Part shown: piece by piece, positions 5,246 to 19,153 of the stretch
Layout of the letters: the number at the start of each line of letters is the position of its first letter
Position numbering within the stretch: the first letter of the stretch is position 1
DNA from: Candidatus Nomurabacteria bacterium
GTDB lineage: Bacteria; Patescibacteriota; Minisyncoccia; Phycocordibacterales; UBA918
Assembly (NCBI GenBank): GCA_020632095.1
Contig: JACKGF010000002.1
Location: forward strand, 144,502 to 208,501
Length of the DNA: 64,000 bases
Reading direction: 5' to 3'
Notes under the pieces: model-generated
Databases searched by the model: none
Seen by the model: only the letters and a program-made list of their open reading frames with translations
Told to the model about the DNA's origin: nothing
Program-made: the position numbers and the translations under genes

Positions 5246-5605
5246 CTGAGCTTTTGACATTTTTTTAAATAAAACATTCAACTCATTCATATAACAGAAA
5301 AGCCGGCACAAACTAAGCCCTAAACCGGCTTTTTATTTAGCCTCTTGGGCTAAATAAATACCCTCGGCCTGAAGTCGGGGGTAATATTCTTTGAAATATA
5401 AATAGAAAAAACCCATCTGAATGATTTTGTTTTTCGTAAGGATGGGGGGAGAGAGAAAAAGAAAAAAGGATGGGTTTGGTGACAGTAAATACTGTCGGAT
5501 TAATGAAAGAGCGTAAGAACTAATTAAGATAATACTACAGTTCTTAAAATCTACAAATTAGTTATCCCCACCCCCATCTTTAGTAGCCTGTGGTTGACGT
5601 TTGCT

Positions 5606-6808
5606 CTACTGATACTGAATATAAATCGGGCTTGGCTGCAAGTCTAGAACCTCGGCTGGAGATAACAAACCCGAACTCGGGGGCTTTAAGTCATTTTTAT
5701 AAAAAAGTTTTATACCAGTAAATTGCACCGGCTCTGGTTCTATCACATGCGAGTAGGTGCCATACTTCAAACTTTTTGATCCCCAGCCATCCATCACCAT
5801 CACTACCTGCACCTCAGGACTAGGCTTGATTCGTGATACGTGAGTAACCATATCTTGAGTAAAACGATGCACTAGTAGCACTTTGGGCGGAAGATGCTTT
5901 TCACGAACAATGGTTGACAAGTATTCAATCACATAATTAATATCTGTCGCATCAAAAGTACCAATCACAGTCCCTGGTTTATTTCCGTACTTCATAGAAA
6001 ACTCTGGATCAATTGCAAAAAATACATCTGGTCGTTCAAGATATTTCTTAAACTTCGGCAATTCAACTTCGACCGTACTGAGCCCTACTTGAATATCAAG
6101 TATCATGACACCATCAATCTCCTTTGCTAAGGCATATGCCTTCTCAATCTCTTTATCAGGCATTACCGCTCGGTACATACCATCTACTCCAGCATCAGCT
6201 TGCGCCACCATCGCTATATATTCAATCGCAGGTAACACCGGTGTGGTCGGATCAGCCTTTTCCCATTTTGCTTTAGTATTGGCCAAGTGAGCCAGCATTT
6301 CCTCAGGCTCTAGTTCACCCAGAATACCCATTTGTCTTGAATAAAAATTACCGTAATAAGCTAAAATCCGTTGAAACGGCAACACTGCTCCCCTGTTTGG
6401 ATACACTGCCGCTGGTGGCCACTTCTCCCCATCAATAGTGACATTTGTACTTGAACTATATCGCAATGCTGAGGTAGTGGCATAAGTGGTAGAAGCTCGT
6501 GTGATAACTGCTCCACTTGGGGTGGTACTAGTACTCATGACAACCTCGGAAACCGGCGGAGTGTAGCCCACCAATGCCAATAGTCGTTTATCATAATCAT
6601 TAGTATCAAGTAGCTCTGGCCAGATAATTTTTGCAACTTCTGGTATTGTGTCTTCTTTGCTATCAGTAGTAGTGGACATATCTGATACCAGTATAGTTTC
6701 ACTCATGTACGTAACCGTACCAAAACTCAAATCTGCCCACACATAACCCACCACCAATATAAGGAGAGCGACCAAAAAACCAATTACATACTTTATTTGA
6801 GCCTGCAC
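5606..6808 (-). CDS. hypothetical membrane-anchored protein (possible TIM-barrel glycoside-hydrolase-like fold)
   Basis: 400-aa ORF with N-terminal TM; alternating beta/alpha pattern (ILDIQVG..FFAIDPEF..LLVHRF..VMVMDGWG); family not assigned. Confidence 0.45.
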   Translation of the reverse strand: MQAQIKYVIGFLVALLILVVGYVWADLSFGTVTYMSETILVSDMSTTTDSKEDTIPEVAKIIWPELLDTNDYDKRLLALVGYTPPVSEVVMSTSTTPSGAVITRASTTYATTSALRYSSSTNVTIDGEKWPPAAVYPNRGAVLPFQRILAYYGNFYSRQMGILGELEPEEMLAHLANTKAKWEKADPTTPVLPAIEYIAMVAQADAGVDGMYRAVMPDKEIEKAYALAKEIDGVMILDIQVGLSTVEVELPKFKKYLERPDVFFAIDPEFSMKYGNKPGTVIGTFDATDINYVIEYLSTIVREKHLPPKVLLVHRFTQDMVTHVSRIKPSPEVQVVMVMDGWGSKSLKYGTYSHVIEPEPVQFTGIKLFYKNDLKPPSSGLLSPAEVLDLQPSPIYIQYQ

Positions 6809-7010
6809 AGTAAAACGATCATATCATATTAAATAGTATTATCTGGCTATCAAGGATGGAGATTGGAGCTTTATGTTTAAATCAACTGAACTTGAAAAAA
6901 CAAACCTAACGTACACTAGGAACTAAATAGCAATATAAAAAGAAAACTGCCCGCAGGACAGTCTCCAACAGGCAGTTTAGGTATCCTTTTAATACCTATC
7001 TATTGTTTAT

Positions 7011-7070
7011 CAAAATATAAAATATTAAAAACACAAACTTACATTTGTGTTTTTAATATTTTATATTTCA
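7011..7070. repeat. 26-bp perfect AT-rich inverted repeat (hairpin)
   Basis: AAAATATAAAATATTAAAAACACAAA / TTTGTGTTTTTAATATTTTATATTTC around a 6-nt loop. Confidence 0.8.
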
Positions 7071-7333
7071 TAATTTCATATACGAATTCCAACTTTGACT
7101 GACTGCCAGTCTAAGGCTATAACGACCAGGACCATCAAAATTGATCTAACATAACATTCCAAATTTTTCGATAACGGCTGACTGCCAGAGAGACTACTTC
7201 TAGGACCACCGTTTTGTATTTGTTATGTACTAGTTAATACTCATCATCTGTAAATTTATTTCACATACAGAAGAGAGAGATTCGTAACAAATACACCATC
7301 ATCAATATATAAAAAGGAACAAAACGTAACTTA

Positions 7334-8652: not shown

Positions 8653-8760
8653 ACTCCGGAGGTTGGTCCTCCGTGAACCACGCCCCTATCTCGGGAGCTT
8701 ACGACGACAAAAATACCCAGCCTGAAGCTGGGTATTTTTGTCGTAGCTGGCCGTCTCGGG
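8653..8760. repeat. repeat module copy 1: 27-bp hairpin unit A (8653-8679) plus 77-bp hairpin unit B (8684-8760)
   Basis: near-identical copies at 10571-10597 (A') and 11067-11142 (B'); B contains a 16-bp-stem hairpin GACAAAAATACCCAGC/GCTGGGTATTTTTGTC. Confidence 0.8.
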
Positions 8761-8917: not shown

Positions 8918-10423
8918 CTACTGTGGCTCGTTTATATTTACAACACCCTCTGCTTCTTCTTGTACAGCATCTAAAACACCCCAAAGCGCATTGATTACTT
9001 CTTCACCTAAAAAATCAGCAAGTTGTCCAGAGGGCCTTTCTTTACCAATAACTTGAGCAGTACGAAGAGTCCAATGAATTCTTCTTGTATCTAAAATCTG
9101 CTCTAGCTCCTTTATCACAGGCTTAACATCATGAGTCTTTCTGTCCCAAGTCGCAGCTGTTCGTAATAATTCTGCTTTAGCCCCGAAAGTATCTGCTTGG
9201 CTAACAATCAATTGGACAGCATCTGTCCAATTAGTTCCCAAAGCTGTAAGTACATCATCAGTTATATATAGATTTTCTGACTCATGGCAAGATAGTTGAA
9301 TATACTTAATCTGATCTTGAGGATTCTCTGAGCTTGGGGTCGGCTTACCCTTATCAGCATCAATAAGAGCATACCCTGCTAACCCAAGTATAGGATCACG
9401 TAATGCAGAAAAAATTTGTTGAAGTGATTTTTGATATTGTTTAATTTCCTCACCTTGTGAAGGTATAACAGAAAAAGAAACTACATGGTGTCGAGGAATT
9501 TGACTCCAAATTCTATAATCATCATCACCTTCTACCAAAAGTATTGGAACTCCAAATAGTGGACCCATAAGTGCATGGCCACCTAAACAGGCGGAAAGTT
9601 CCTTTGTGACATTATCAAAAGGCTTTGCTTCAAATGTATCATTTGCTCTATTAAGGTAAACAACGCTGGATGACTCCCCAGCAAATTGACCTACCGAAGC
9701 CATTAACGTAGTACTGTGTGTAGCTATTATAATTTGAAGAGAATACTTTTCTGCGACTTGTATCAAAAAATCGGCGAACCTAACTTGTAAATCAGGATGG
9801 ATATGCGCATCTGGCTCATCGATAAGCATTATTCTCTCTGACTTCTGTTCTATTTCCCAAATAGCAGAAACTGTTAGTACATCGAGACCAATCGTCAATA
9901 GTTGAGCTTCACCACTACTTAGCTGTTCAATACCAGATACTCTAGTTTGATCTAAGGCTCTGGTTAGTAAATACGGAGGATTTTCTTTACTATTTAGTTC
10001 AATTTGGAAGTCTGGTATCAACTGACTGATTAAACCCTCTAAATCTGAGGGGTCACCCAAATCACCATATTCAACACCTTTTCTGATACCACCTCTTGTT
10101 GTGAAATATGCTGGTATTCTAGTAATAACATGTTGCCGATAATCAGCTGAATAATTTCCCTTACTGTACTCACTACGCTTAGTACTACTCAACTCTTCTT
10201 GAAGCCATGCTGGTTGCATATCCAAGGTTCCCGTTCTCTCTGGAATTACATAATGGATACTATCAACAGCCTGATCCCTAAGTGATCTCAGTAGTAGACT
10301 TTTACCAGAACCATTTTTACCAAATAGAATAGTTACAGAATTTAAATTAGTAACTGACCAATTACCACCACCAAGAGGACTTGGTCGAGGAATAGTAATT
10401 GAATTCCTATAGGGTAATCTCAT
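8918..10423 (-). CDS. OLD-family ATP-dependent endonuclease (ABC-type ATPase plus TOPRIM)
   Basis: Walker A GKNGSGKS, Walker B/D-loop LIDEPDAHIHP, C-terminal TOPRIM-like PILLVEGDDDYRIW. Confidence 0.75.
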   Translation of the reverse strand: MRLPYRNSITIPRPSPLGGGNWSVTNLNSVTILFGKNGSGKSLLLRSLRDQAVDSIHYVIPERTGTLDMQPAWLQEELSSTKRSEYSKGNYSADYRQHVITRIPAYFTTRGGIRKGVEYGDLGDPSDLEGLISQLIPDFQIELNSKENPPYLLTRALDQTRVSGIEQLSSGEAQLLTIGLDVLTVSAIWEIEQKSERIMLIDEPDAHIHPDLQVRFADFLIQVAEKYSLQIIIATHSTTLMASVGQFAGESSSVVYLNRANDTFEAKPFDNVTKELSACLGGHALMGPLFGVPILLVEGDDDYRIWSQIPRHHVVSFSVIPSQGEEIKQYQKSLQQIFSALRDPILGLAGYALIDADKGKPTPSSENPQDQIKYIQLSCHESENLYITDDVLTALGTNWTDAVQLIVSQADTFGAKAELLRTAATWDRKTHDVKPVIKELEQILDTRRIHWTLRTAQVIGKERPSGQLADFLGEEVINALWGVLDAVQEEAEGVVNINEPQ

Positions 10424-10933: not shown

Positions 10934-10958
10934 GAGTTAACTGCCGGACAGGGACTCG
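10934..10958. repeat. attL-like direct repeat: displaced copy of tRNA-Gln 3' end
   Basis: CTGCCGGACAGGGACTCG (10941-10958) identical to 17019-17036; flanking GAGTT also shared. Confidence 0.7.
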
Positions 10959-11066
10959 GTCAGGAGTCACTAACTATAATTGTTCACTTCGTTCCAATTC
11001 TAGTAAGTGCTCACGACCCTGGCGGGTCAAACAGTCTCCCAGACTGTTTGCTTCCGCCTTTCTCAT

Positions 11067-11142
11067 CCCTATCTCGGGAGCTTAAAACGACAAAAATACC
11101 CAGCCTGAAGCTGGGTATTTTTGTCGTAGCTGGCTGTCTGGG
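11067..11142. repeat. repeat unit B' (copy of 8684-8760, about 95 % identity)
   Basis: CCCTATCTCGGGAGCTTAAAACGACAAAAATACCCAGCCTGAAGCTGGGTATTTTTGTCGTAGCTGG... Confidence 0.8.
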
Positions 11143-11194
11143 ACGATGTTCGAACTTTTTTAATAACTTAAAGTAAGTGACTAGGTACCAAAAC

Positions 11195-12496
11195 CTATTT
11201 TGCTTTCTTCTCTACCACAGCGTCAACTGCCTGCTTGACTATGACTTCATCAGGAATCATTTCATACAGCTTATCAACCATAACCATGAGATTATCGACT
11301 CCAATACTCACCACGTTTTCTTTTTTTTCTTTCTTGGAATTCTCCTCAACCTTTGCACCTACCTCCTGTTTAAAAGGCTCTGTGTAAATAGACTTAAAGG
11401 TATCTATTGAAAAATCAAGCACACGTTTATTGTCTTTAAATTTATCAAGCAAGAATTCAATATGGTTTCTAACCGCTGCAGCACTAGCTGCTTTAAAAGC
11501 ATACTTTTCCAAAAATTGTCTTTCTTTTGAGTATTGGACTGCTGAAAATAGTACTAGAAAAATAAGCGGCGATGTATAAGCAAAGCGTGTAAAAAAGCCT
11601 TCAATACCTGTAAGGTCTTTCAAACTCAATTCTATTAGTATCAACAAAATAATTCCGCCCAACATCAGATACTTCCATGAAAATAAGTCTGAATCTAAGC
11701 TTTTCGAAATTTCATTCTTTCTCTTTTCAAACGTATGAGCAAAACTACCGTCAATCACCAATCCTGACACTTCCTCAACTTGATTTTTCTTCTCATTAAC
11801 CTCATCCAAAGAAGTCTTGATGTCACTCAAAAAATCTGTAGAGCGTTGCTTAATGTCGACAATCTCTTTTTCATTCGTTTTGGAGACTTTCAGTGATTCA
11901 TTTATCTCTGCGACTAGTTTAACTGAATCTAACTGAGCCTGCTGGACAAGCTTAAGAACAGCATCTAAGCCCGAGTTCTTATCATCAATCTTCTTCTTAA
12001 TTTCAGTAAATTCAACAAAAGCTGTTTTCATTGCTTCAGCCTTTTGTTGGAAATCAACCAACAACTTGTCAGATTTACTCAAATTCTCCTCTGCACTCTT
12101 TTTATACTTCGCAATATCCTCATCTAAACTCCTTGAGCTTTTTAAAAGTGCCGTAATTTCGCCATCATTACCCCGTACCTGACCTTCTAGAGCGGCTGCA
12201 CTTTTACTCAATTCTTGAAGCTTGTCTATTGTTGTTTTGGCAGCATCTAAGTATCCACTTATACCAGTACGTGTCTCTTGTATCTGGTCAAGTGAAACCT
12301 TTGCTTGATTTTGCAGTGCCTGCACTCCAGTCTTGATTTCATCCGTTTCAGTTACAATACTTTCAGCAGCATCACTTGCCTTTTGATAACGAATCTCCAA
12401 CCCTTCGATGTTATCCAAGGTTTTCTTTGCTTTTGTATACCGCCCTTTGACTGTTTCAAGGAATTGTTTTATTTCGGCAATTTGCTGTTCATCCAT
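11195..12496 (-). CDS. coiled-coil protein with two central TM helices (cargo of element; possible effector)
   Basis: about 270 aa E/K/Q/L-rich heptad N-terminus, TM helices LMLGGIILLILIELSL and SPLIFLVLFSAV, about 110-aa C-terminal domain. Confidence 0.5.
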   Translation of the reverse strand: MDEQQIAEIKQFLETVKGRYTKAKKTLDNIEGLEIRYQKASDAAESIVTETDEIKTGVQALQNQAKVSLDQIQETRTGISGYLDAAKTTIDKLQELSKSAAALEGQVRGNDGEITALLKSSRSLDEDIAKYKKSAEENLSKSDKLLVDFQQKAEAMKTAFVEFTEIKKKIDDKNSGLDAVLKLVQQAQLDSVKLVAEINESLKVSKTNEKEIVDIKQRSTDFLSDIKTSLDEVNEKKNQVEEVSGLVIDGSFAHTFEKRKNEISKSLDSDLFSWKYLMLGGIILLILIELSLKDLTGIEGFFTRFAYTSPLIFLVLFSAVQYSKERQFLEKYAFKAASAAAVRNHIEFLLDKFKDNKRVLDFSIDTFKSIYTEPFKQEVGAKVEENSKKEKKENVVSIGVDNLMVMVDKLYEMIPDEVIVKQAVDAVVEKKAK

Positions 12497-12555
12497 TACT
12501 TAATAATAAACACCCGATGTAGTCATTGTGTCAAACACAAAGCTATGGTCTAAAC

Positions 12556-13092
12556 TTATTTAACAATGTATTCAGACATCTCAGCAACTATATTCCTAAA
12601 ATTATCTCCAACGTTGATTCTTCTGAGTGTTAGTTCAGCATCCTCAAAAACGCCATCAACTAACTGGTCACGCTCCATTCGACTAGGTTTATTATGAGAA
12701 CCACCGTCTAGTTCAATTGCCAGTAACGGCGTCATTCTGTCGTTACAAATCAAGAAATCGACGTGTTTTGGCAATATTTGATTACGTCTTTGGTAGTAGC
12801 CATTACCATTAACAACATCCACCATATCGGCAATACGCATTTTAGGAAAAACGAAGTAATTTTCTGGCAAACCTGACAGCAAAGCTTGAAACAGCGCCAT
12901 TTCACTATCGTTCATAATCACAGCTTTCTTTTTGTACTCCCGTTGTTTTTCAACCACTACTTCCCTGACGACTTTCTGTTTAAAGGGTGAGATTAACTTA
13001 TAGAAAAGCCATTTAATAAATAACGCACACAGTAGAAGAAAGATTACAAGAAAGACTAGATTGAAAAGTAACTGCAACAAATTAGTTTCCAT
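12556..13092 (-). CDS. DUF2726-like (restriction-endonuclease-fold / NERD-like) protein with N-terminal TM anchor
   Basis: N-terminal hydrophobic helix; YFVFPKMRIADMV..VDFLICNDRMTPLLAIELDGGSH..RDQLVDGVFEDAELTLRRI pattern typical of DUF2726. Confidence 0.55.
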   Translation of the reverse strand: METNLLQLLFNLVFLVIFLLLCALFIKWLFYKLISPFKQKVVREVVVEKQREYKKKAVIMNDSEMALFQALLSGLPENYFVFPKMRIADMVDVVNGNGYYQRRNQILPKHVDFLICNDRMTPLLAIELDGGSHNKPSRMERDQLVDGVFEDAELTLRRINVGDNFRNIVAEMSEYIVK

Positions 13093-13149
13093 ATGTGCTA
13101 ACTATAGTCTGTAGAACTTTAGTTATCAAATTCATACTCTGGATAGCAA

Positions 13150-13359
13150 ATGACTAAGCCTATCCTAGTAAAGTTTGGAAAGCGTGTTCGGACAATCCGA
13201 GCCGAGCAAGGCATCTCCCAAGAGAGACTTGGTGAACTGGCTGGCGTTCACAGAACGTACGTTGGAATGATTGAACGAGGTGAGAAAAACATCACTCTGA
13301 CCAACATTGAAAAAATCGCTAAAGCACTGAGGGTGCCCCTGAAATCTCTAGTGGATTAG
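13150..13359 (+). CDS. XRE-family helix-turn-helix transcriptional regulator
   Basis: TIRAEQGISQERLGELAGVHRTYVGMIERGEKNITLTNIEKIAKAL is a classic Cro/C1 HTH. Confidence 0.8.
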   Translation: MTKPILVKFGKRVRTIRAEQGISQERLGELAGVHRTYVGMIERGEKNITLTNIEKIAKALRVPLKSLVD

Positions 13360-13393: not shown

Positions 13394-14263
13394 ATGGCGA
13401 CAATGTCGCTACAAGACCAGAAAATTGCAAAAACTCTTGAATTACTCGTCATGCTGTCACGTTCAAAACAGCAGTTTTCGCATGGTCAATCGGATGAGGA
13501 GAAGGCCACTCTACGCATAAGCCGACAACTAATCACTGATTCACAACTTTCAGTGCCGGAATTTACAAACGCTCTGCACGCTATAGCTGAAAAAGGATAC
13601 CTGTGGCATGTAGTTATTTTTGATGAAAATCTTCGTTCGCAGATGAATGAATTCATCAATAGTCCTCAATACTCAGAAGTAGTAGATAGACTTAAAGAAC
13701 TCGACACTAAAGATACTTCGGATAAATTAAAGCAATCAGCTGTCACAGACCTCAAAAAAATTATCCCTCATGGTACACAGGTAAACCAAGAGTTAGTAGA
13801 CCAAGATTTTATAAAAATATCAGAAGCCTTTTCTGTAGGAATAGGGTCATTCAAACAGATGCGTCCTGATGAAATTGGACTGGTTATCTTAATGCCTTTT
13901 CGAGATATCTCTGTTCTCTTAGACAAAATCAACAATGATGAAAAATTTGATGAAATCAGAAATGACGGCTTTTGGTATGACCAACAGAATTTTATCTTTT
14001 ACATTGATGAATCACCCATCCCGACAAGTTACCGAGGCAATCCAAATTTAGAGCACTATATCATTGCAAGCTTCTACAACAACCCTAAGCTTAAAAGCAT
14101 TGACTACGAAGAAATGGTTGGATTTGACCCCTCCAAGACTAATGAGTCATACCAACATGCAATGCGCAGGTTTATCGAAAAACATCCATCACTTGAAAGG
14201 ATTTTTACACCCCATAAGTACAGCACTGAGTTCCATTCTGACAGATACAACCACACTCCATAA
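13394..14263 (+). CDS. hypothetical protein (element cargo)
   Basis: 289-aa ORF co-directional with and 35 nt after the XRE gene; no recognisable motif. Confidence 0.45.
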   Translation: MATMSLQDQKIAKTLELLVMLSRSKQQFSHGQSDEEKATLRISRQLITDSQLSVPEFTNALHAIAEKGYLWHVVIFDENLRSQMNEFINSPQYSEVVDRLKELDTKDTSDKLKQSAVTDLKKIIPHGTQVNQELVDQDFIKISEAFSVGIGSFKQMRPDEIGLVILMPFRDISVLLDKINNDEKFDEIRNDGFWYDQQNFIFYIDESPIPTSYRGNPNLEHYIIASFYNNPKLKSIDYEEMVGFDPSKTNESYQHAMRRFIEKHPSLERIFTPHKYSTEFHSDRYNHTP

Positions 14264-14567: not shown

Positions 14568-15515
14568 ATGGATAATAATGATATAAAAAGCGCTCGATAT
14601 TGCTTTACGATTCACAATTACACAAAAGACGAACTGAAACAGTTCCACCAATTAGCTCAGTCCCTAGAAAAGCACCGATTTATTGCCTACGGATTAGAAG
14701 TCGCTCCAGACACTGGAACACCTCACATTCAAGGCTATGTTGAACTTAACAAATCACAGAGATTTACCTTTCTTCACAATTACTTCAACATCAAACGTGG
14801 GAAGAAACTATTAAAATTTCATGTGGAAATTGCAAACGGTACTGCTGAGCAAAATCGAAAATATTCAAGCAAAGAAGGTAACTATTTTGAGTTTGGTGAA
14901 CCAGCAACCCAAGGTAGTCGAACCGACTTGAAAGAAATTAAAAGATTACTAAAAGAAAATCCCAACAACCTCGTTGCTGTCATCGAAGAACATGGGAATA
15001 ACTATCAGCAGATACGATTCGCTGAGACACTGCAACCATATTTCATGGCAGACCGTGACCCTGATAATCCTCCAACGGTAATTTGGATTTTTGGTTCAAC
15101 TGGAATTGGAAAAACGTCAATGGTGTATAGAACTTTCGGAAAAGAAAACGTCTGTTCAGTCTCTGCATACAACTGGCTCGGCACTGGATATAGACAACAA
15201 GAATGTTTCCTTATGGACGACTTCCGAGCTGATGATTTAGCCTTCAACACTCTTCTAAAAATTACTGACCGCTTCCCTTTCACCCTAGAGCGTAAGGGTG
15301 GACAAGTTCCCTTAAATTCGCCTTACATCATCTTCACCTCACCAAGAGCAATTAGGTACACCTATCTGAGCATCGGTGAAAAGGTCGAACAGCTACTTCG
15401 TAGAGTAAAAGAAATTAACCTAGACTTAATAATTGATGACTCTGGAATAGACCTGAGAAATCTAGATGAGAAATACGTTTACAAATACGTCAATTATCCT
15501 AAGGATGACTTCTAG
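14568..15515 (+). CDS. rep: CRESS-DNA-virus-type replication initiator Rep (HUH endonuclease plus SF3 helicase)
   Basis: motif I CFTIHNY, motif II PHIQGY, motif III YSSKEG; Walker A GSTGIGKTS, Walker B LMDDF, motif C IIFTSP. Confidence 0.85.
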   Translation: MDNNDIKSARYCFTIHNYTKDELKQFHQLAQSLEKHRFIAYGLEVAPDTGTPHIQGYVELNKSQRFTFLHNYFNIKRGKKLLKFHVEIANGTAEQNRKYSSKEGNYFEFGEPATQGSRTDLKEIKRLLKENPNNLVAVIEEHGNNYQQIRFAETLQPYFMADRDPDNPPTVIWIFGSTGIGKTSMVYRTFGKENVCSVSAYNWLGTGYRQQECFLMDDFRADDLAFNTLLKITDRFPFTLERKGGQVPLNSPYIIFTSPRAIRYTYLSIGEKVEQLLRRVKEINLDLIIDDSGIDLRNLDEKYVYKYVNYPKDDF

Positions 15516-15551: not shown

Positions 15552-17066
15552 ATGAGTAAATATGTCCTCTATGCACGAAAGTCCTCTGAAAGCGAAGATA
15601 GGCAAGTAAAATCACTAGACGCACAAGAGTCTGAAATGCTCACCATTGCTAAGCGTGAAGGACTAGAGATTGTAGAAATCATTCGTGAATCACATTCAGC
15701 AAAAACAACGAAGCAACGACCCGAATTCAACCGAATGATTAAGGGTGTACAGTCTGGCAAATACACTGCCATTCTGACATGGGCACCTGACCGAATCTCT
15801 CGTAACGCTGGTGACCTTGGTGTAGTCATTGACCTAATGGACGCAGGAAAACTTCAATGTGTAAAAACCTACTCACAAACGTTCTTCAATGACCCATACA
15901 GCAAGTTCATGTTTATGATGCTCGGCTCCCAAGCCAAGCTAGAAAACGACCAAAAGAGCTTGAATGTAAAACGAGGTAACCGAGAAAAGCTAAAACGTGG
16001 CGACTGGATTAATTCAGCGCCTTTTGGCTATTTGAATGACAAAGCAACTAAGACTATTGTCCTAGACCCTGAACGAGCTCCATATGTATCTCAAATGTTT
16101 GAACTGTATTCATCTGGACTCTATAGCCTTAAACAAATAGCTTCCCTTTTGTTTGATAAAGGACTACGCACTAAAGGCGGTAAAAAACTAAGTGCTGGTC
16201 AAATTCATAAAATCATCAACCGCACCTTCTACTATGGGGTTATGGAATCTGACGGAAAATACTATCAAGGCAATCACGAACCTATAATCTCTCAGAAACT
16301 ATTCGAACAGTGCCAAGAAATATCTGGAAGCAAATCACGACCTCGCAAGAAAACGAAGGGCTTTACCCTATCTGGATTCATTACTTGCGATAAGTGTGAC
16401 TGTGCCGTTACTGCCGAATTAAAGAAAGGTAAATATATTTACTATCATTGCACTAATGGTAAGGGTATTTGTGACCAAAAATCTTTCAATACAAACGAAG
16501 ATACTCTCCATGACTTTATTACTCTAGACATGAAAAAGCTAAAGATTAGTCAAAGAATGGTAGATATCGTATACACAGCGAAACTAGAAGAATTAAAACA
16601 ATCTGGTGACTTTCATAACCATGCACTAGACACTGCTCGTAAAGCTCTAGAATCGCTCTCTATGCGTAAATCAAGGCTGATTGATACCTTCACTGCTGGC
16701 GACATAGAAGAGACACTATATCGTGAAAAACTACTAACACTCGATAATGAGAAGGTGAACCTAGAAAAACAAATCGTTGAAATTGAGAAAAATAACCCTG
16801 ACCCGTACACAACTATCGAACTCGTCTATAATCAGTTTAAACGAGGCTATACAATGTCGAAACGGTACAGAGATGCTTCACCAGAAGAAAAACGAGAAAT
16901 TCTCTCAGACGCACTATCGAACTCCAAGCTACTAGATAGAAATATCGTTGATTTACAATACAAAAGCCCGTACGATGTGTTCGCACGGACTCCTGTAAAT
17001 GCCTCTTTTTCAGAGTTGCTGCCGGACAGGGACTCGAACCCCGATAGACGGCACCAAAAACCGTAG
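15552..17066 (+). CDS. large serine recombinase/integrase
   Basis: N-terminal resolvase domain with catalytic Ser (YARKSSESEDRQ..SLDAQ), recombinase domain, Cys-rich zinc ribbon (CDKCDC..HCTNGKGIC), C-terminal coiled coil; last about 16 codons overlap the tRNA-Gln 3' end. Confidence 0.85.
   Translation: MSKYVLYARKSSESEDRQVKSLDAQESEMLTIAKREGLEIVEIIRESHSAKTTKQRPEFNRMIKGVQSGKYTAILTWAPDRISRNAGDLGVVIDLMDAGKLQCVKTYSQTFFNDPYSKFMFMMLGSQAKLENDQKSLNVKRGNREKLKRGDWINSAPFGYLNDKATKTIVLDPERAPYVSQMFELYSSGLYSLKQIASLLFDKGLRTKGGKKLSAGQIHKIINRTFYYGVMESDGKYYQGNHEPIISQKLFEQCQEISGSKSRPRKKTKGFTLSGFITCDKCDCAVTAELKKGKYIYYHCTNGKGICDQKSFNTNEDTLHDFITLDMKKLKISQRMVDIVYTAKLEELKQSGDFHNHALDTARKALESLSMRKSRLIDTFTAGDIEETLYREKLLTLDNEKVNLEKQIVEIEKNNPDPYTTIELVYNQFKRGYTMSKRYRDASPEEKREILSDALSNSKLLDRNIVDLQYKSPYDVFARTPVNASFSELLPDRDSNPDRRHQKP
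17013..17036. repeat. attR-like direct repeat (within intact tRNA-Gln 3' end)
   Basis: GAGTTG-CTGCCGGACAGGGACTCG; 18-mer identical to 10941-10958. Confidence 0.7.
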
Positions 17067-17088
17067 TCCTACCATTAGACGATCCGGC
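17020..17088 (-). tRNA. tRNA-Gln(TTG)-like (Glu/Gln-type D arm); integration target
   Basis: minus-strand RNA GCCGGAUCGUCUAAUGGUAGGACUACGGUUUUUGGUGCCGUCUAUCGGGGUUCGAGUCCCUGUCCGGCA; anticodon stem ACGGU/GCCGU, loop UUUUGGU; T-loop UUCGAGU; acceptor/D-arm geometry slightly non-canonical by hand folding. Confidence 0.55.
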
Positions 17089-17175
17089 AAGGGATCTGTT
17101 TCTGTCAGTTACTAAAAGATGTAATCAAATAGATATCTGCTTTGGTGGGCCTAGGATAGCATAAACTTCGTATAT

Positions 17176-17475
17176 TTAGAAGCGGTCTTTATCCCTATTC
17201 TTGCTCTTCTCAAGACTATCTGCCAAAGCTTTATCCAAATCAATATTGTGAGTATTGGCGAAGCAAGCTAGGGCAAAAATAATATCTCCAATTTCGTCAG
17301 AAAATTCCTGTTCGCGTTCTGTACTCTTTTTTACTTTCGGACCATATTCATGATTGACCAAGCGGGCCAACTCCCCTACTTCCTCGGTCACCCTCGCCAA
17401 CATCTCATGTGGAGACCAATAACTAAAGCTCACTTCCTTGAACCAGCTATCTATATCTTTTTGGCCTTTGTTCAT
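17176..17475 (-). CDS. MazG-like nucleoside triphosphate pyrophosphohydrolase (small)
   Basis: EEVGELARLV...EFSDEIGDIIFAL: EExxE/ExxD metal-binding helices typical of the MazG/NTP-PPase fold. Confidence 0.6.
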   Translation of the reverse strand: MNKGQKDIDSWFKEVSFSYWSPHEMLARVTEEVGELARLVNHEYGPKVKKSTEREQEFSDEIGDIIFALACFANTHNIDLDKALADSLEKSKNRDKDRF

Positions 17476-17482
17476 GAAAAAT

Positions 17483-19153
17483 TTATTTTATCGTCTCGTA
17501 CGCCGCTTTCACAAAAGCAGTAAATAGTGGATGGGGGTCAAGTGGTCTTGCTTGAAGCTCTGGATGGAATTGTACCCCGACAAAGAAAGGATGATCTTCA
17601 AGTGGTAGTTCGGCAATTTCCATAAGGGTACTATCTGGAGACTTACCGGAAAACCGCAGACCTTTTTCTTCAAGTAAAGGAATGTATTCGGGATTAACTT
17701 CATAACGGTGACGGTGACGTTCTAGAATAGACTGTGATTTGTATGCTTTGGCGGCCACTGAGCCCTTGGTCAGGTTGGCAGGATATTGACCGAGTCGCAT
17801 CGAACCACCCATCTCTTTGTTGGCAATTTTGTCTTTTTGTTCAGCCATAACACCAATCACCAGGTGTTCTGCATTAGGATTTATCTCTTCAGTACTTGCG
17901 TCTTTCAGTTTGGCGACATTTTGTGCATACTCCAGCACCGCTAACTGCATTCCGTAACAAAGACCAAAGTACGGCACCTTGTTCTTGCGGGCGTATTCAA
18001 TCACATTTAATTTGCCTTCAATACCAGTTTTGCCAAATCCCCCTGGCACCAAGATACCATCGTAATTCTTCAGTTTCTTTAATTGCGCTTTATCTTCAAA
18101 ATCATGAGCTGACAGGTACGAAATCACTGGCTTAAGTTTTAGTTTGTAGGCAGAAAACTTGATTGCTTCCAAGACAGACAAATACACATCAGACAAAACA
18201 AAGTCTCCAGAATTGAAATATTTACCCACCACCGCGATCTTTACTACATCATTCTCTACCTTAGAGCTGTTTACAAATTGTCGCCAAGCCTTAAGATCAA
18301 CTGCTTGTTTCATTGGTAAATTCAAAATCTCGGTCAATTGCAATGAAAGCTTGTCTTCTTCAAAATTAAGTGGAATCTCGTAAATATTTTTCACGTCAGG
18401 AGCCGAAATAACATTTTCAACCTTCACGTTACAAAACTTAGAAATCTTTTCCTTACGCTTATCGTCCACTCCAATCGGACTGCGACACACAATCATATCG
18501 GCAAATACTCCAGCGTTATTAAGGGTACGAACAGCGGTCTGGGTAGGTTTGGTTTTCATTTCACCAATCGAACCAGGGACCGGTAGATAGCTCACCATCA
18601 CGACAGCAACGTTTTCTGGTTCTTCAGATTTCATCATACGAATCGCTTCCAAAAAGAGCACATTTTGGTATTCCCCAACCGTACCTCCCACCTCAACTTG
18701 TACTACATCAGCTTTAGCCTCAGCCCCCGCCTGCTTAATACGCCGAATGACTTCGAGAGGAATATCAGGTACCACCTCAACACATAGTCCGTTATATTCT
18801 AAATTTCGTTCTTTTTGAATCACTGACTGGTAGACACTACCAGTCGTCATGTAGTTGATGTTGGGTAAATCGGTATTTAAAAAGCGTTCATAGTTACCCA
18901 TGTCTTGGTCAGTTTCGAGACCATCCTTTAAGACAAAAGTTTCTCCATGGACAGTTGGGTTCATAGTACCCGCGTCCACATTAATGTATGGGTCAATTTT
19001 CATCGCAGTCACCTTGTGACCTCTGGCCTGCAGTAGGGTCGCAATTGAAGAAGAAGCAATACCTTTCCCTACTCCACTCATTACCCCACCAACAATGAAA
19101 ATGTATTTTTGAGCCGGCTGTTTAGCAGTCGTTTTAGTTTTAGTTTTTTTCAT
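17483..19153 (-). CDS. pyrG: CTP synthase
   Basis: N-terminal synthetase GGVMSGVGKGIASSSIATLL; C-terminal glutamine amidotransferase (GLCYGMQ, HPE). Confidence 0.95.
   Translation of the reverse strand: MKKTKTKTTAKQPAQKYIFIVGGVMSGVGKGIASSSIATLLQARGHKVTAMKIDPYINVDAGTMNPTVHGETFVLKDGLETDQDMGNYERFLNTDLPNINYMTTGSVYQSVIQKERNLEYNGLCVEVVPDIPLEVIRRIKQAGAEAKADVVQVEVGGTVGEYQNVLFLEAIRMMKSEEPENVAVVMVSYLPVPGSIGEMKTKPTQTAVRTLNNAGVFADMIVCRSPIGVDDKRKEKISKFCNVKVENVISAPDVKNIYEIPLNFEEDKLSLQLTEILNLPMKQAVDLKAWRQFVNSSKVENDVVKIAVVGKYFNSGDFVLSDVYLSVLEAIKFSAYKLKLKPVISYLSAHDFEDKAQLKKLKNYDGILVPGGFGKTGIEGKLNVIEYARKNKVPYFGLCYGMQLAVLEYAQNVAKLKDASTEEINPNAEHLVIGVMAEQKDKIANKEMGGSMRLGQYPANLTKGSVAAKAYKSQSILERHRHRYEVNPEYIPLLEEKGLRFSGKSPDSTLMEIAELPLEDHPFFVGVQFHPELQARPLDPHPLFTAFVKAAYETIK

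Follow-up and report, generated by a model that had tools for sequence, protein, structure and literature searches.

Small integrative elements that target tRNA genes, among them the tycheposons and the integrative mobilizable elements, insert at the tRNA 3′ end, join a recombinase and replication backbone to variable cargo, and leave decayed derivatives at the same hotspot. Among anti-phage genes, PrrC (EcoprrI) and RloC are abortive-infection (Abi) genes housed in type I restriction-modification (R-M) operons, and both are soluble proteins that combine an ABC ATPase with an anticodon nuclease; the SLATT proteins and the 2TM proteins of CBASS and retrons are defence effectors with two transmembrane (TM) helices. 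DUF2726 has been grouped with Vsr and DUF559 in the PD-(D/E)XK superfamily, with genes found among mobile elements (Steczkiewicz et al. 2012, PMC3424549), and is described elsewhere as a DNase of the restriction-endonuclease fold that is fused to N-terminal domains of the Abi type (PMC3710099). Here we examine a 6.1-kb integrated element of Candidatus Nomurabacteria, contained in a 64,000-nt stretch of DNA (GenBank assembly GCA_020632095.1, contig JACKGF010000002.1, positions 144,502 to 208,501; hereafter the window, whose first letter is position 1), and two neighbouring genes within it. Gene A (12556-13092, minus strand) encodes a TM-anchored DUF2726 protein, and gene B (11195-12496, minus strand) encodes a coiled-coil membrane protein. 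We favour, at about even confidence, a reading in which A is a nuclease of the element backbone and B is an independent candidate anti-phage membrane effector that occupies the cargo slot.

Judged by layout, the element resembles the small tRNA-targeting elements in each of the respects named above. It differs from them in its Candidate Phyla Radiation (CPR) host, its large serine recombinase, an HUH Rep swapped among three families, and a block made up of a helix-turn-helix (HTH) gene and a DUF2726 gene. Our literature searches returned no description of this element type in Patescibacteria. The ends of the element are exact 18-nt direct repeats of the tRNA-Gln 3′ end (CGAGTCCCTGTCCGGCAG), located by repeat search: one is the attachment-site (att) repeat inside the tRNA gene (17019-17036, minus strand), and the second, identical copy marks the distal end (10941-10958, minus strand). 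The island therefore has what defines a tRNA-integrated element, namely a recombinase gene and flanking direct repeats of a tRNA 3′ end. Between the repeats lie B, A, the HTH gene, an open reading frame (ORF) of 289 aa, the Rep gene and the serine recombinase gene. The backbone consists of the serine recombinase, the HUH Rep, the 289-aa ORF, the XRE-family HTH gene and A, and a variable cargo slot follows A.

Linkage of A and B

The first-pass annotation described A and B as two co-directional genes with a 59-nt gap, set inside a mobile element and opposite in orientation to its replication genes. This layout was borne out, as both ORFs lie on the minus strand, the tRNA-Gln repeats enclose all of the genes, and A and B run against the Rep and recombinase genes. 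The annotation further proposed that the two form an undescribed defence or abortive-infection pair, in which a membrane nuclease would work with a membrane coiled-coil sensor or pore. Such a dedicated two-gene system would fit the adjacency of the genes, the absence of a terminator between them in the window, the hydropathy profiles that make both products membrane proteins, and the presence of a restriction-endonuclease-fold gene upstream of B in two other loci (L054, DUF2726; L001, which has one DUF559-B juxtaposition).

The distribution of homologues argues otherwise. We collected 49 B-homologue loci from protein-homologue look-ups, 6 GTDB species-representative loci and 37 JGI metagenome loci; among them a hidden Markov model built from A homologues matched in the window only, and none of the five contexts of A homologues contained a B homologue. 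The only other juxtaposition of DUF2726 with B, in one later contig (L054), is discordant in its divergence: identity to the window copies is 35% for its DUF2726 protein and 68% for its B protein, and the genes are separated by 534 nt that include a terminator-like hairpin. At the DNA level, the block that carries B (11195-12561) is common only to L050, L054 and L001 and starts at the A stop codon, with homology to L050 and L054 beginning at positions 12561 and 12554, respectively. The closest B homologue (L050, 79% identity) stands beside tRNA-Gln without A, without a recombinase and with no nuclease gene upstream. Because co-occurrence is lacking, divergence is discordant, a terminator-like hairpin intervenes in L054 and DNA homology breaks at the A stop codon, these comparisons indicate that A and B are not a dedicated two-gene system. 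We regard the pair as highly improbable, and the claim of a new two-gene defence system falls with it.

A restriction-endonuclease-fold gene nevertheless precedes B in three (the window, L054 and L001) of the four closest contexts, which may point to some looser functional tie between such a gene and B. The simplest account of the sequence comparisons is that in these elements the gene for such a nuclease belongs to the backbone and lies next to the cargo slot, because the DUF559 protein of L001 shares the KHVD...IE.DG..H...ERD core.

On this account B would be a self-contained cassette, probably with its own promoter, that was dropped into the cargo slot. DNA comparison showed that the spacer between the genes (12497-12555, minus strand) travels with B and not with A. 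It contains a TTGACA hexamer (12529-12534), about 30 nt upstream of the B start codon, that is conserved in the window, L050 and L054; this region is likely to be B's own promoter, with no canonical −10 element called.

The DUF2726 protein and its regulator

Gene A encodes 178 aa, in which the ORF and Pfam analyses distinguish an N-terminal TM anchor, a basic linker and a DUF2726 domain of putative Vsr/DUF559-like PD-(D/E)XK nuclease fold; the protein is 100% identical to an NCBI protein annotated in Candidatus Nomurabacteria. The match to Pfam DUF2726 (PF10881) spans residues 58-161 at E = 4.3e-21, with 75.4 bits against a cutoff of 24.7, and sub-threshold Pfam matches were obtained to the related restriction-endonuclease-fold families MTES_1575 and DUF559. 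The DUF2726 assignment made at first pass thus survived the profile search and so did the single TM segment, while the NERD-like part of the description did not, as the Pfam scan gave no match between A and NERD (PF08378) at E ≤ 0.1. Hydropathy shows a single strongly hydrophobic segment at about residues 5-33, followed by the basic linker with a net charge of +6. An AlphaFold2 model based on a 24-sequence alignment (predicted local distance difference test, pLDDT, 88.5) places a TM helix at residues 2-34, ahead of an alpha/beta core that spans 62-177. Its best PDB folds were TnsA, VRR_NUC and FAN1, which are of the restriction-endonuclease fold and all weak (E ≥ 0.02); a sequence-profile search of the PDB with A returned nothing meaningful.

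Within the A subfamily, residues E64, K84, R86, D89, H110, D112, E127, G130, S132 and D142 are invariant, H133 is conserved, and the TM anchor is kept in nearly all members. The ..HVDFL.. and ..AIELDG.SH.. stretches of the core are retained, and the DUF559 protein encoded ahead of B in L001 has this core too. Measured against the Vsr/DUF559/DUF2726 nucleases, A scores above the DUF2726 threshold and keeps the core, and differs by its subfamily-conserved N-terminal TM anchor. We know of no substrate or activity for DUF2726. Comparisons with homologues place both A and B under purifying selection, with nonsynonymous change (pN) far below synonymous change (pS), dN/dS of ∼0.06-0.12 and dS near saturation. 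Because pN is far below pS, both are taken to be functional coding genes.

In all five contexts of A homologues, which range from 83% to ∼50% identity, an XRE HTH gene is divergent from the DUF2726 gene, and in three of the five a serine recombinase and an HUH Rep are present as well. Downstream of the A homologue, the genes vary from context to context. They include DUF6119 and T5orf172 genes in L056; a thymidylate-kinase/AAA_28-like gene, a methyltransferase and a CYTH gene in L057; 200-aa and 83-aa ORFs in L059; and 316-aa and 292-aa ORFs in L061. Three of these four cargo sets match PADLOC candidate-defence models (PDC-S57, PDC-M51B/VakA and PDC-M14B). In an otherwise mosaic backbone, the block formed by the HTH gene and A (∼12635-13349) is the best-conserved DNA, at 84% identity to L056, 76% to L057, 73% to L059 and 70% to L061. 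Sequence comparison thus assigns A to the element backbone, as a conserved unit with the HTH regulator.

The two divergent genes share a 57-nt control region (13093-13149), in which a promoter scan found a promoter-like site for A with a −35 element TTGATA (13124-13129) and a −10 element TATAGT (13101-13106), agreeing with the consensus at 10 of 12 positions. Promoter-like sites are no more numerous in this region than in shuffled sequences, and the A site is a consensus match only. Lying directly upstream of the A start codon, it would make the A mRNA nearly leaderless. Both A and B appear to start within a few nt of promoter-like elements (13101-13129 and 12497-12534, respectively) and to have no obvious Shine-Dalgarno sequence, which suggests that both mRNAs are leaderless or nearly so.

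A small XRE HTH gene beside a restriction-endonuclease-fold gene, with a short shared control region, is likewise found in restriction endonucleases regulated by controller proteins (C-proteins). The element departs from C-protein systems in lacking a methyltransferase, in the membrane anchor of its putative nuclease and in the divergent arrangement of the two genes, which do not share an operon. In the mechanism that we propose, A would be a membrane-tethered DUF2726 nuclease whose catalytic domain, following the positive-inside rule, should face the cytoplasm, and which under HTH control would cut DNA at the inner face of the membrane. Its role could be to exclude competing incoming DNA, as a form of inter-element competition, or it could act as an addiction-type module.

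At least ten tailed-phage contigs from IMG/VR (among L070-L083), which share one gene order, also encode TM-anchored DUF2726 homologues at the same position, with 28-39% identity to A. In L079, the sole annotated contig of the group, the homologue (1475-1987) is flanked by genes for the terminase large subunit and the portal protein. The slot between terminase and portal genes is typical for morons or homing endonucleases.

The coiled-coil membrane protein and its neighbourhoods

Gene B, the exchangeable cargo, encodes 433 aa, in which ∼270 aa of long, coiled-coil-type helices precede a hydrophobic hairpin (∼272-292 and ∼303-323) with a conserved juxtamembrane module (...QYSKER..LEKYAFKAASAAA.RNH...IY.EP); the protein is 100% identical to an NCBI protein annotated in Candidatus Nomurabacteria. 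The predicted structure is all-helical, with three long helices (residues 3-107, 114-170 and 177-268), two hydrophobic helices (274-290, strongly hydrophobic, and 298-323, moderately so) and a helical C-terminus of ∼110 aa. Pro, Cys and Trp are absent from the first 268 residues, which have a 21-residue periodicity. Helix model and hydropathy therefore agree with the initial description of B as a coiled coil of about 270 aa, two TM helices and a C-terminal domain of about 110 aa, with the second TM helix being moderate. The AlphaFold2 model is weak (pLDDT 62; predicted TM-score, pTM, 0.24). The best Foldseek match in the PDB, to axonemal coiled coils (E = 0.85), was discarded in view of the low-confidence model, and a sequence-profile search of the PDB with B returned nothing meaningful.

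An exhaustive profile search with the C-terminal module (residues 240-433) recovered 1,746 clusters (50% identity) at E ≤ 1e-3, and 814 at E ≤ 1e-10. All members checked, such as those in Maribellus and Daejeonella (Bacteroidota), are annotated as "hypothetical protein" with no Pfam family. Family members from cultivable hosts include WP_079701685.1 of Daejeonella lutea and WP_158867278.1 of Maribellus comscasis. The invariant core of the family comprises the second hydrophobic helix and the juxtamembrane segment (R..YTSP....F....QYSKER..LEKYAFK...), and the coiled-coil part is variable. Searches of B against Pfam, NCBIfam, PHROGs and PADLOC gave only sub-threshold matches of the coiled-coil type (DUF948, SMC, JetC, LmuB and the coiled-coil region of a phage protease); those in PADLOC-DB v2 amounted to coiled-coil noise (JetC and LmuB, E ≥ 0.008), and a distant member, P0087, gave a similar result. 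The C-terminal modules of 15 family members, searched against Pfam at E up to 5, yielded nothing recurrent and no SLATT family at HMMER-level sensitivity. There was no tblastn match of B to the plasmids of PLSDB, no B relative in IMG/VR and no description of the family in our literature searches. B is sporadic and carried by mobile elements, with no core-genome pattern.

B homologues strongly co-localise with defence genes, so that the defence association proposed at first pass stands for B by itself, though not for A and B as a linked pair. Five homologues lie inside a type I R-M operon or cluster. In L009, L021 and L025, which represent three lineages, B is flanked by HsdS and HsdR and is no more than 10 nt from either; the L013 copy has a Fic gene on one side and an HsdM/S fusion on the other; and in L015 a frameshifted B follows HsdS fragments and is itself followed by a 373-aa ORF and then HsdR. 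The L015 homologue (5876-7219; the same as in L016) is split into ORFs of 171 and 259 aa and is probably frameshifted or a pseudogene. Type I R-M genes are found within a few kb of B in L003 and L053, and in L003 and L052 B stands beside tRNA-Gln, next to a different serine-recombinase element with methyltransferases and a type I restriction subunit. Among 119 neighbours counted by Pfam family at 34 distinct loci, the most frequent were Methylase_S, N6_Mtase, SWI2_SNF2, N6_N4_Mtase, HSDR_N and ResIII. As a raw count with no background model, R-M genes are present in the fetched flanks of at least 14 of ∼40 distinct B-homologue loci.

The R-M-embedded homologues share with PrrC and RloC both the type of slot, between hsdS and hsdR, and the tight spacing (L009, L021 and L025). 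B differs in having no sequence or domain relationship to either, in being an all-helical membrane protein with no enzymatic domain and, for the window copy, in lying outside any R-M operon. By analogy, B may in some lineages guard type I R-M systems, with a PrrC-like logic. As a general explanation of the family, B could be an R-M accessory subunit that tethers type I enzymes to the membrane, or a PrrC-like latent effector fired by a phage anti-restriction protein, with the window copy stand-alone or orphaned. The operon positions just listed are what such a role would give, but a type I system adjoins only a minority of family members, and not the window copy. The unrelated defence partners found elsewhere, such as GmrSD, AbiU2 and an OLD-like ATPase, are those expected of a general defence-island resident. 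We therefore consider this explanation improbable.

These other partners also bear on whether B is a defence gene at all. In L049 the gene order is an Eco57I-like methyltransferase, a 180-aa ORF, B and GmrSD; a distant B member lies directly upstream of HEPN_AbiU2 in another serine-recombinase element; and a Daejeonella member adjoins an OLD-like TOPRIM ATPase, with Shedu and PLD genes nearby. TIR, DarT1-NADAR and RhuM were also among the 119 neighbours. B might instead be a general membrane or stress-type structural protein in the style of DUF948 or YtxH, carried on mobile DNA incidentally and with no part in defence. The sub-threshold DUF948 match (28 bits against a cutoff of 37) would suit such a protein, as would the lack of homology to any PADLOC model and two non-defence settings, L005 among NUDIX genes and L050 beside SIMPL and DsbB genes. 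It would hardly be expected within type I R-M operons of three lineages at gaps of ≤10 nt and in two further type I clusters, nor beside AbiU2, GmrSD, an OLD-like ATPase, Shedu and TIR, with sporadic mobile carriage. This makes a structural protein unlikely in our view.

In architecture, B is comparable to the SLATT proteins and the 2TM effectors of CBASS and retrons, with which it shares a short hydrophobic hairpin as the best-conserved membrane element, flanking cytoplasmic helical parts and defence-island neighbourhoods. It differs from them in its ∼270-aa coiled-coil N-terminus and in usually not standing beside a nucleotide-signal generator. B thus resembles the R-M-embedded Abi genes in context and the 2TM effectors in architecture, and it is placed in neither group because the profile searches gave no match to their families. 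Under the reading that we favour, B would be a single-gene, membrane-acting anti-phage effector of the abortive-infection type. Its cytoplasmic coiled coil would sense or scaffold, and the hairpin and juxtamembrane module would oligomerise and compromise the membrane.

A membrane protein carried as cargo on integrative elements beside recombinases could alternatively act in superinfection exclusion, blocking entry of competing phage or element DNA at the membrane with no killing of the cell, a theme that the neighbouring A nuclease could fit. However, B is predicted to expose an external loop of only ∼8-20 residues and to keep both large domains in the cytoplasm, and embedding in chromosomal R-M operons is atypical of exclusion genes. 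We view exclusion as very unlikely.

Apart from the nuclease-fold gene that recurs before B, several points tell against the interpretation of B as an effector and A as a backbone nuclease. The defence role of B is drawn from gene neighbourhoods counted with no background model, which include the non-defence settings of L005 and L050, and with the queries used no R-M (including hsd) genes were detectable around the window copy. The pore or oligomer mechanism is speculative, as the B model is poor and no informative fold match was obtained. The topology of A is read from charge bias. On balance, B is credible as a candidate new family of defence genes, one among many such candidates.

The element family and its tRNA-Gln hotspot

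The integration target is a tRNA-Gln gene (UUG; 17018-17089, minus strand), identified by ARAGORN and by Rfam (53.9 bits). The large serine recombinase (15552-17066, plus strand) has Resolvase, Recombinase and Zn_ribbon_recom domains, and its 3′ end overlaps tRNA-Gln on the opposite strand. Upstream of it is a CRESS-type HUH rolling-circle Rep with a superfamily-3 helicase domain (14568-15515, plus strand; Pfam Viral_Rep and RNA_helicase). The 289-aa ORF (13394-14263, plus strand) was assigned to no family in the ORF list and Pfam scan; ORFs of 215-281 aa hold the same position in related elements, a likeness of position only. The XRE-family HTH_3 regulator (13150-13359, plus strand) has 69 aa and matches Pfam HTH_3 at E = 5e-17.

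The last ∼16 codons of the recombinase gene are antisense to the 3′ half of tRNA-Gln and cross the att repeat, both in the window (17018-17066) and in L001 (5342-5402), and the tail of the protein (...DRDSNPD..HQKP) is conserved between the two. Since these codons run across the att repeat, integration or excision should alter the recombinase C-terminus.

L001, from a related genome, has the same design, with tRNA-Gln repeats of its own (5384-5401 and 10136-10153) that enclose a recombinase, the DUF559 gene and a B homologue. Its site is syntenic with that of the window, downstream of RF-1, FtsE, FtsX and CTP synthase. Between related elements the recombinase is only 65-70% identical in DNA. 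Three HUH Rep families accompany the same recombinase and HTH/DUF2726 block, namely Viral_Rep with RNA_helicase in the window, and Phage_CRI and REP_ORF2-G2P in L056 (4515-5555) and L057 (3978-4820); the replication gene has therefore been swapped.

Two loci appear to be decayed derivatives at the same tRNA-Gln site. L050 (7652-9302) keeps B alone beside the tRNA, and L059 (6236-8700) keeps the HTH/DUF2726 block and cargo without recombinase or Rep. L050 contains a 116-nt piece homologous to window positions 10949-11064, yet on the other side of B. This locus raised the idea that B is a resident chromosomal gene beside tRNA-Gln, with the element inserted between them, which we rejected since in the window and in L001 alike the distal att repeat is on the far side of B; from sequence, L050 is better read as a decayed derivative than as an ancestral site with a resident B. 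A small MazG-like gene (17153-17487, minus strand), recognised by homology to an L050 gene annotated as PF03819, lies between CTP synthase and tRNA-Gln in the window, and L050 has two extra genes (695 aa and Exo_endo_phos) between CTP synthase and its MazG-like gene.

Just downstream of B, repeat searches and DNA comparison revealed a conserved motif of ∼30 nt, AAAAGTTCGAACATCGTCCCAGACAGCCAGC (11129-11162), followed by an 18-bp hairpin (11087-11127), which together span 11087-11162 on the minus strand. In related elements of different genomes the motif recurs behind the cargo region, with a variable terminator-like hairpin (L001 9360-9394, 9950-9983 and 10842-10873; L061 9310-9343 and 9753-9794; L057 10310-10331), and no Rfam family matched it. 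Possible roles are a marker of the cargo slot's right edge and a signal for recombination or at the RNA level; an origin as an att relic or tRNA fragment was also considered.

A gene for a 501-aa AAA_21/AAA_15 ATPase (8918-10423, minus strand) lies just outside the distal att repeat of the element, with AriAB (fused PARIS-like), NsnB, GajA and PtuA as its best PADLOC matches. We rejected a recurrent partnership of B with OLD- or PARIS-like ATPases, given only two cases (the window and Daejeonella), of which the window one is outside the att repeat. A 76-nt repeat, 95% identical between its copies and containing an 18-bp hairpin, occurs at 8684-8759 and 11067-11142, downstream of the ATPase gene and of B, respectively. 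Its presence behind both genes suggests that defence cargo has accreted in tandem at the tRNA-Gln hotspot.

A broader proposal can be made for both genes, which we put forward as distinctly unlikely in its full extent. The B family (at least 1,700 clusters at 50% identity in CPR, Bacteroidota and others) would be a new and widespread class of single-gene anti-phage membrane effectors, many of them guards of type I R-M systems that fire when the restriction enzyme is disabled, and separately the HTH/TM-DUF2726 unit would represent a new type of module in CPR mobile elements and phages, a nuclease tethered to the membrane for entry exclusion.

A more general lesson of the locus is that neighbouring genes on one element need not constitute a two-gene system. 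Mobile elements and immunity in the CPR/Patescibacteria are poorly charted, and a CRESS-type Rep in a CPR chromosome is noteworthy by itself. The locus represents a family of compact, modular integrative elements with a defined cargo slot for candidate defence genes. Within that slot, B belongs to a large family that has no Pfam or PADLOC model and keeps company with defence genes, which makes it a concrete new anti-phage gene candidate, and the presence of family members in cultivable Bacteroidota makes the anti-phage idea testable.

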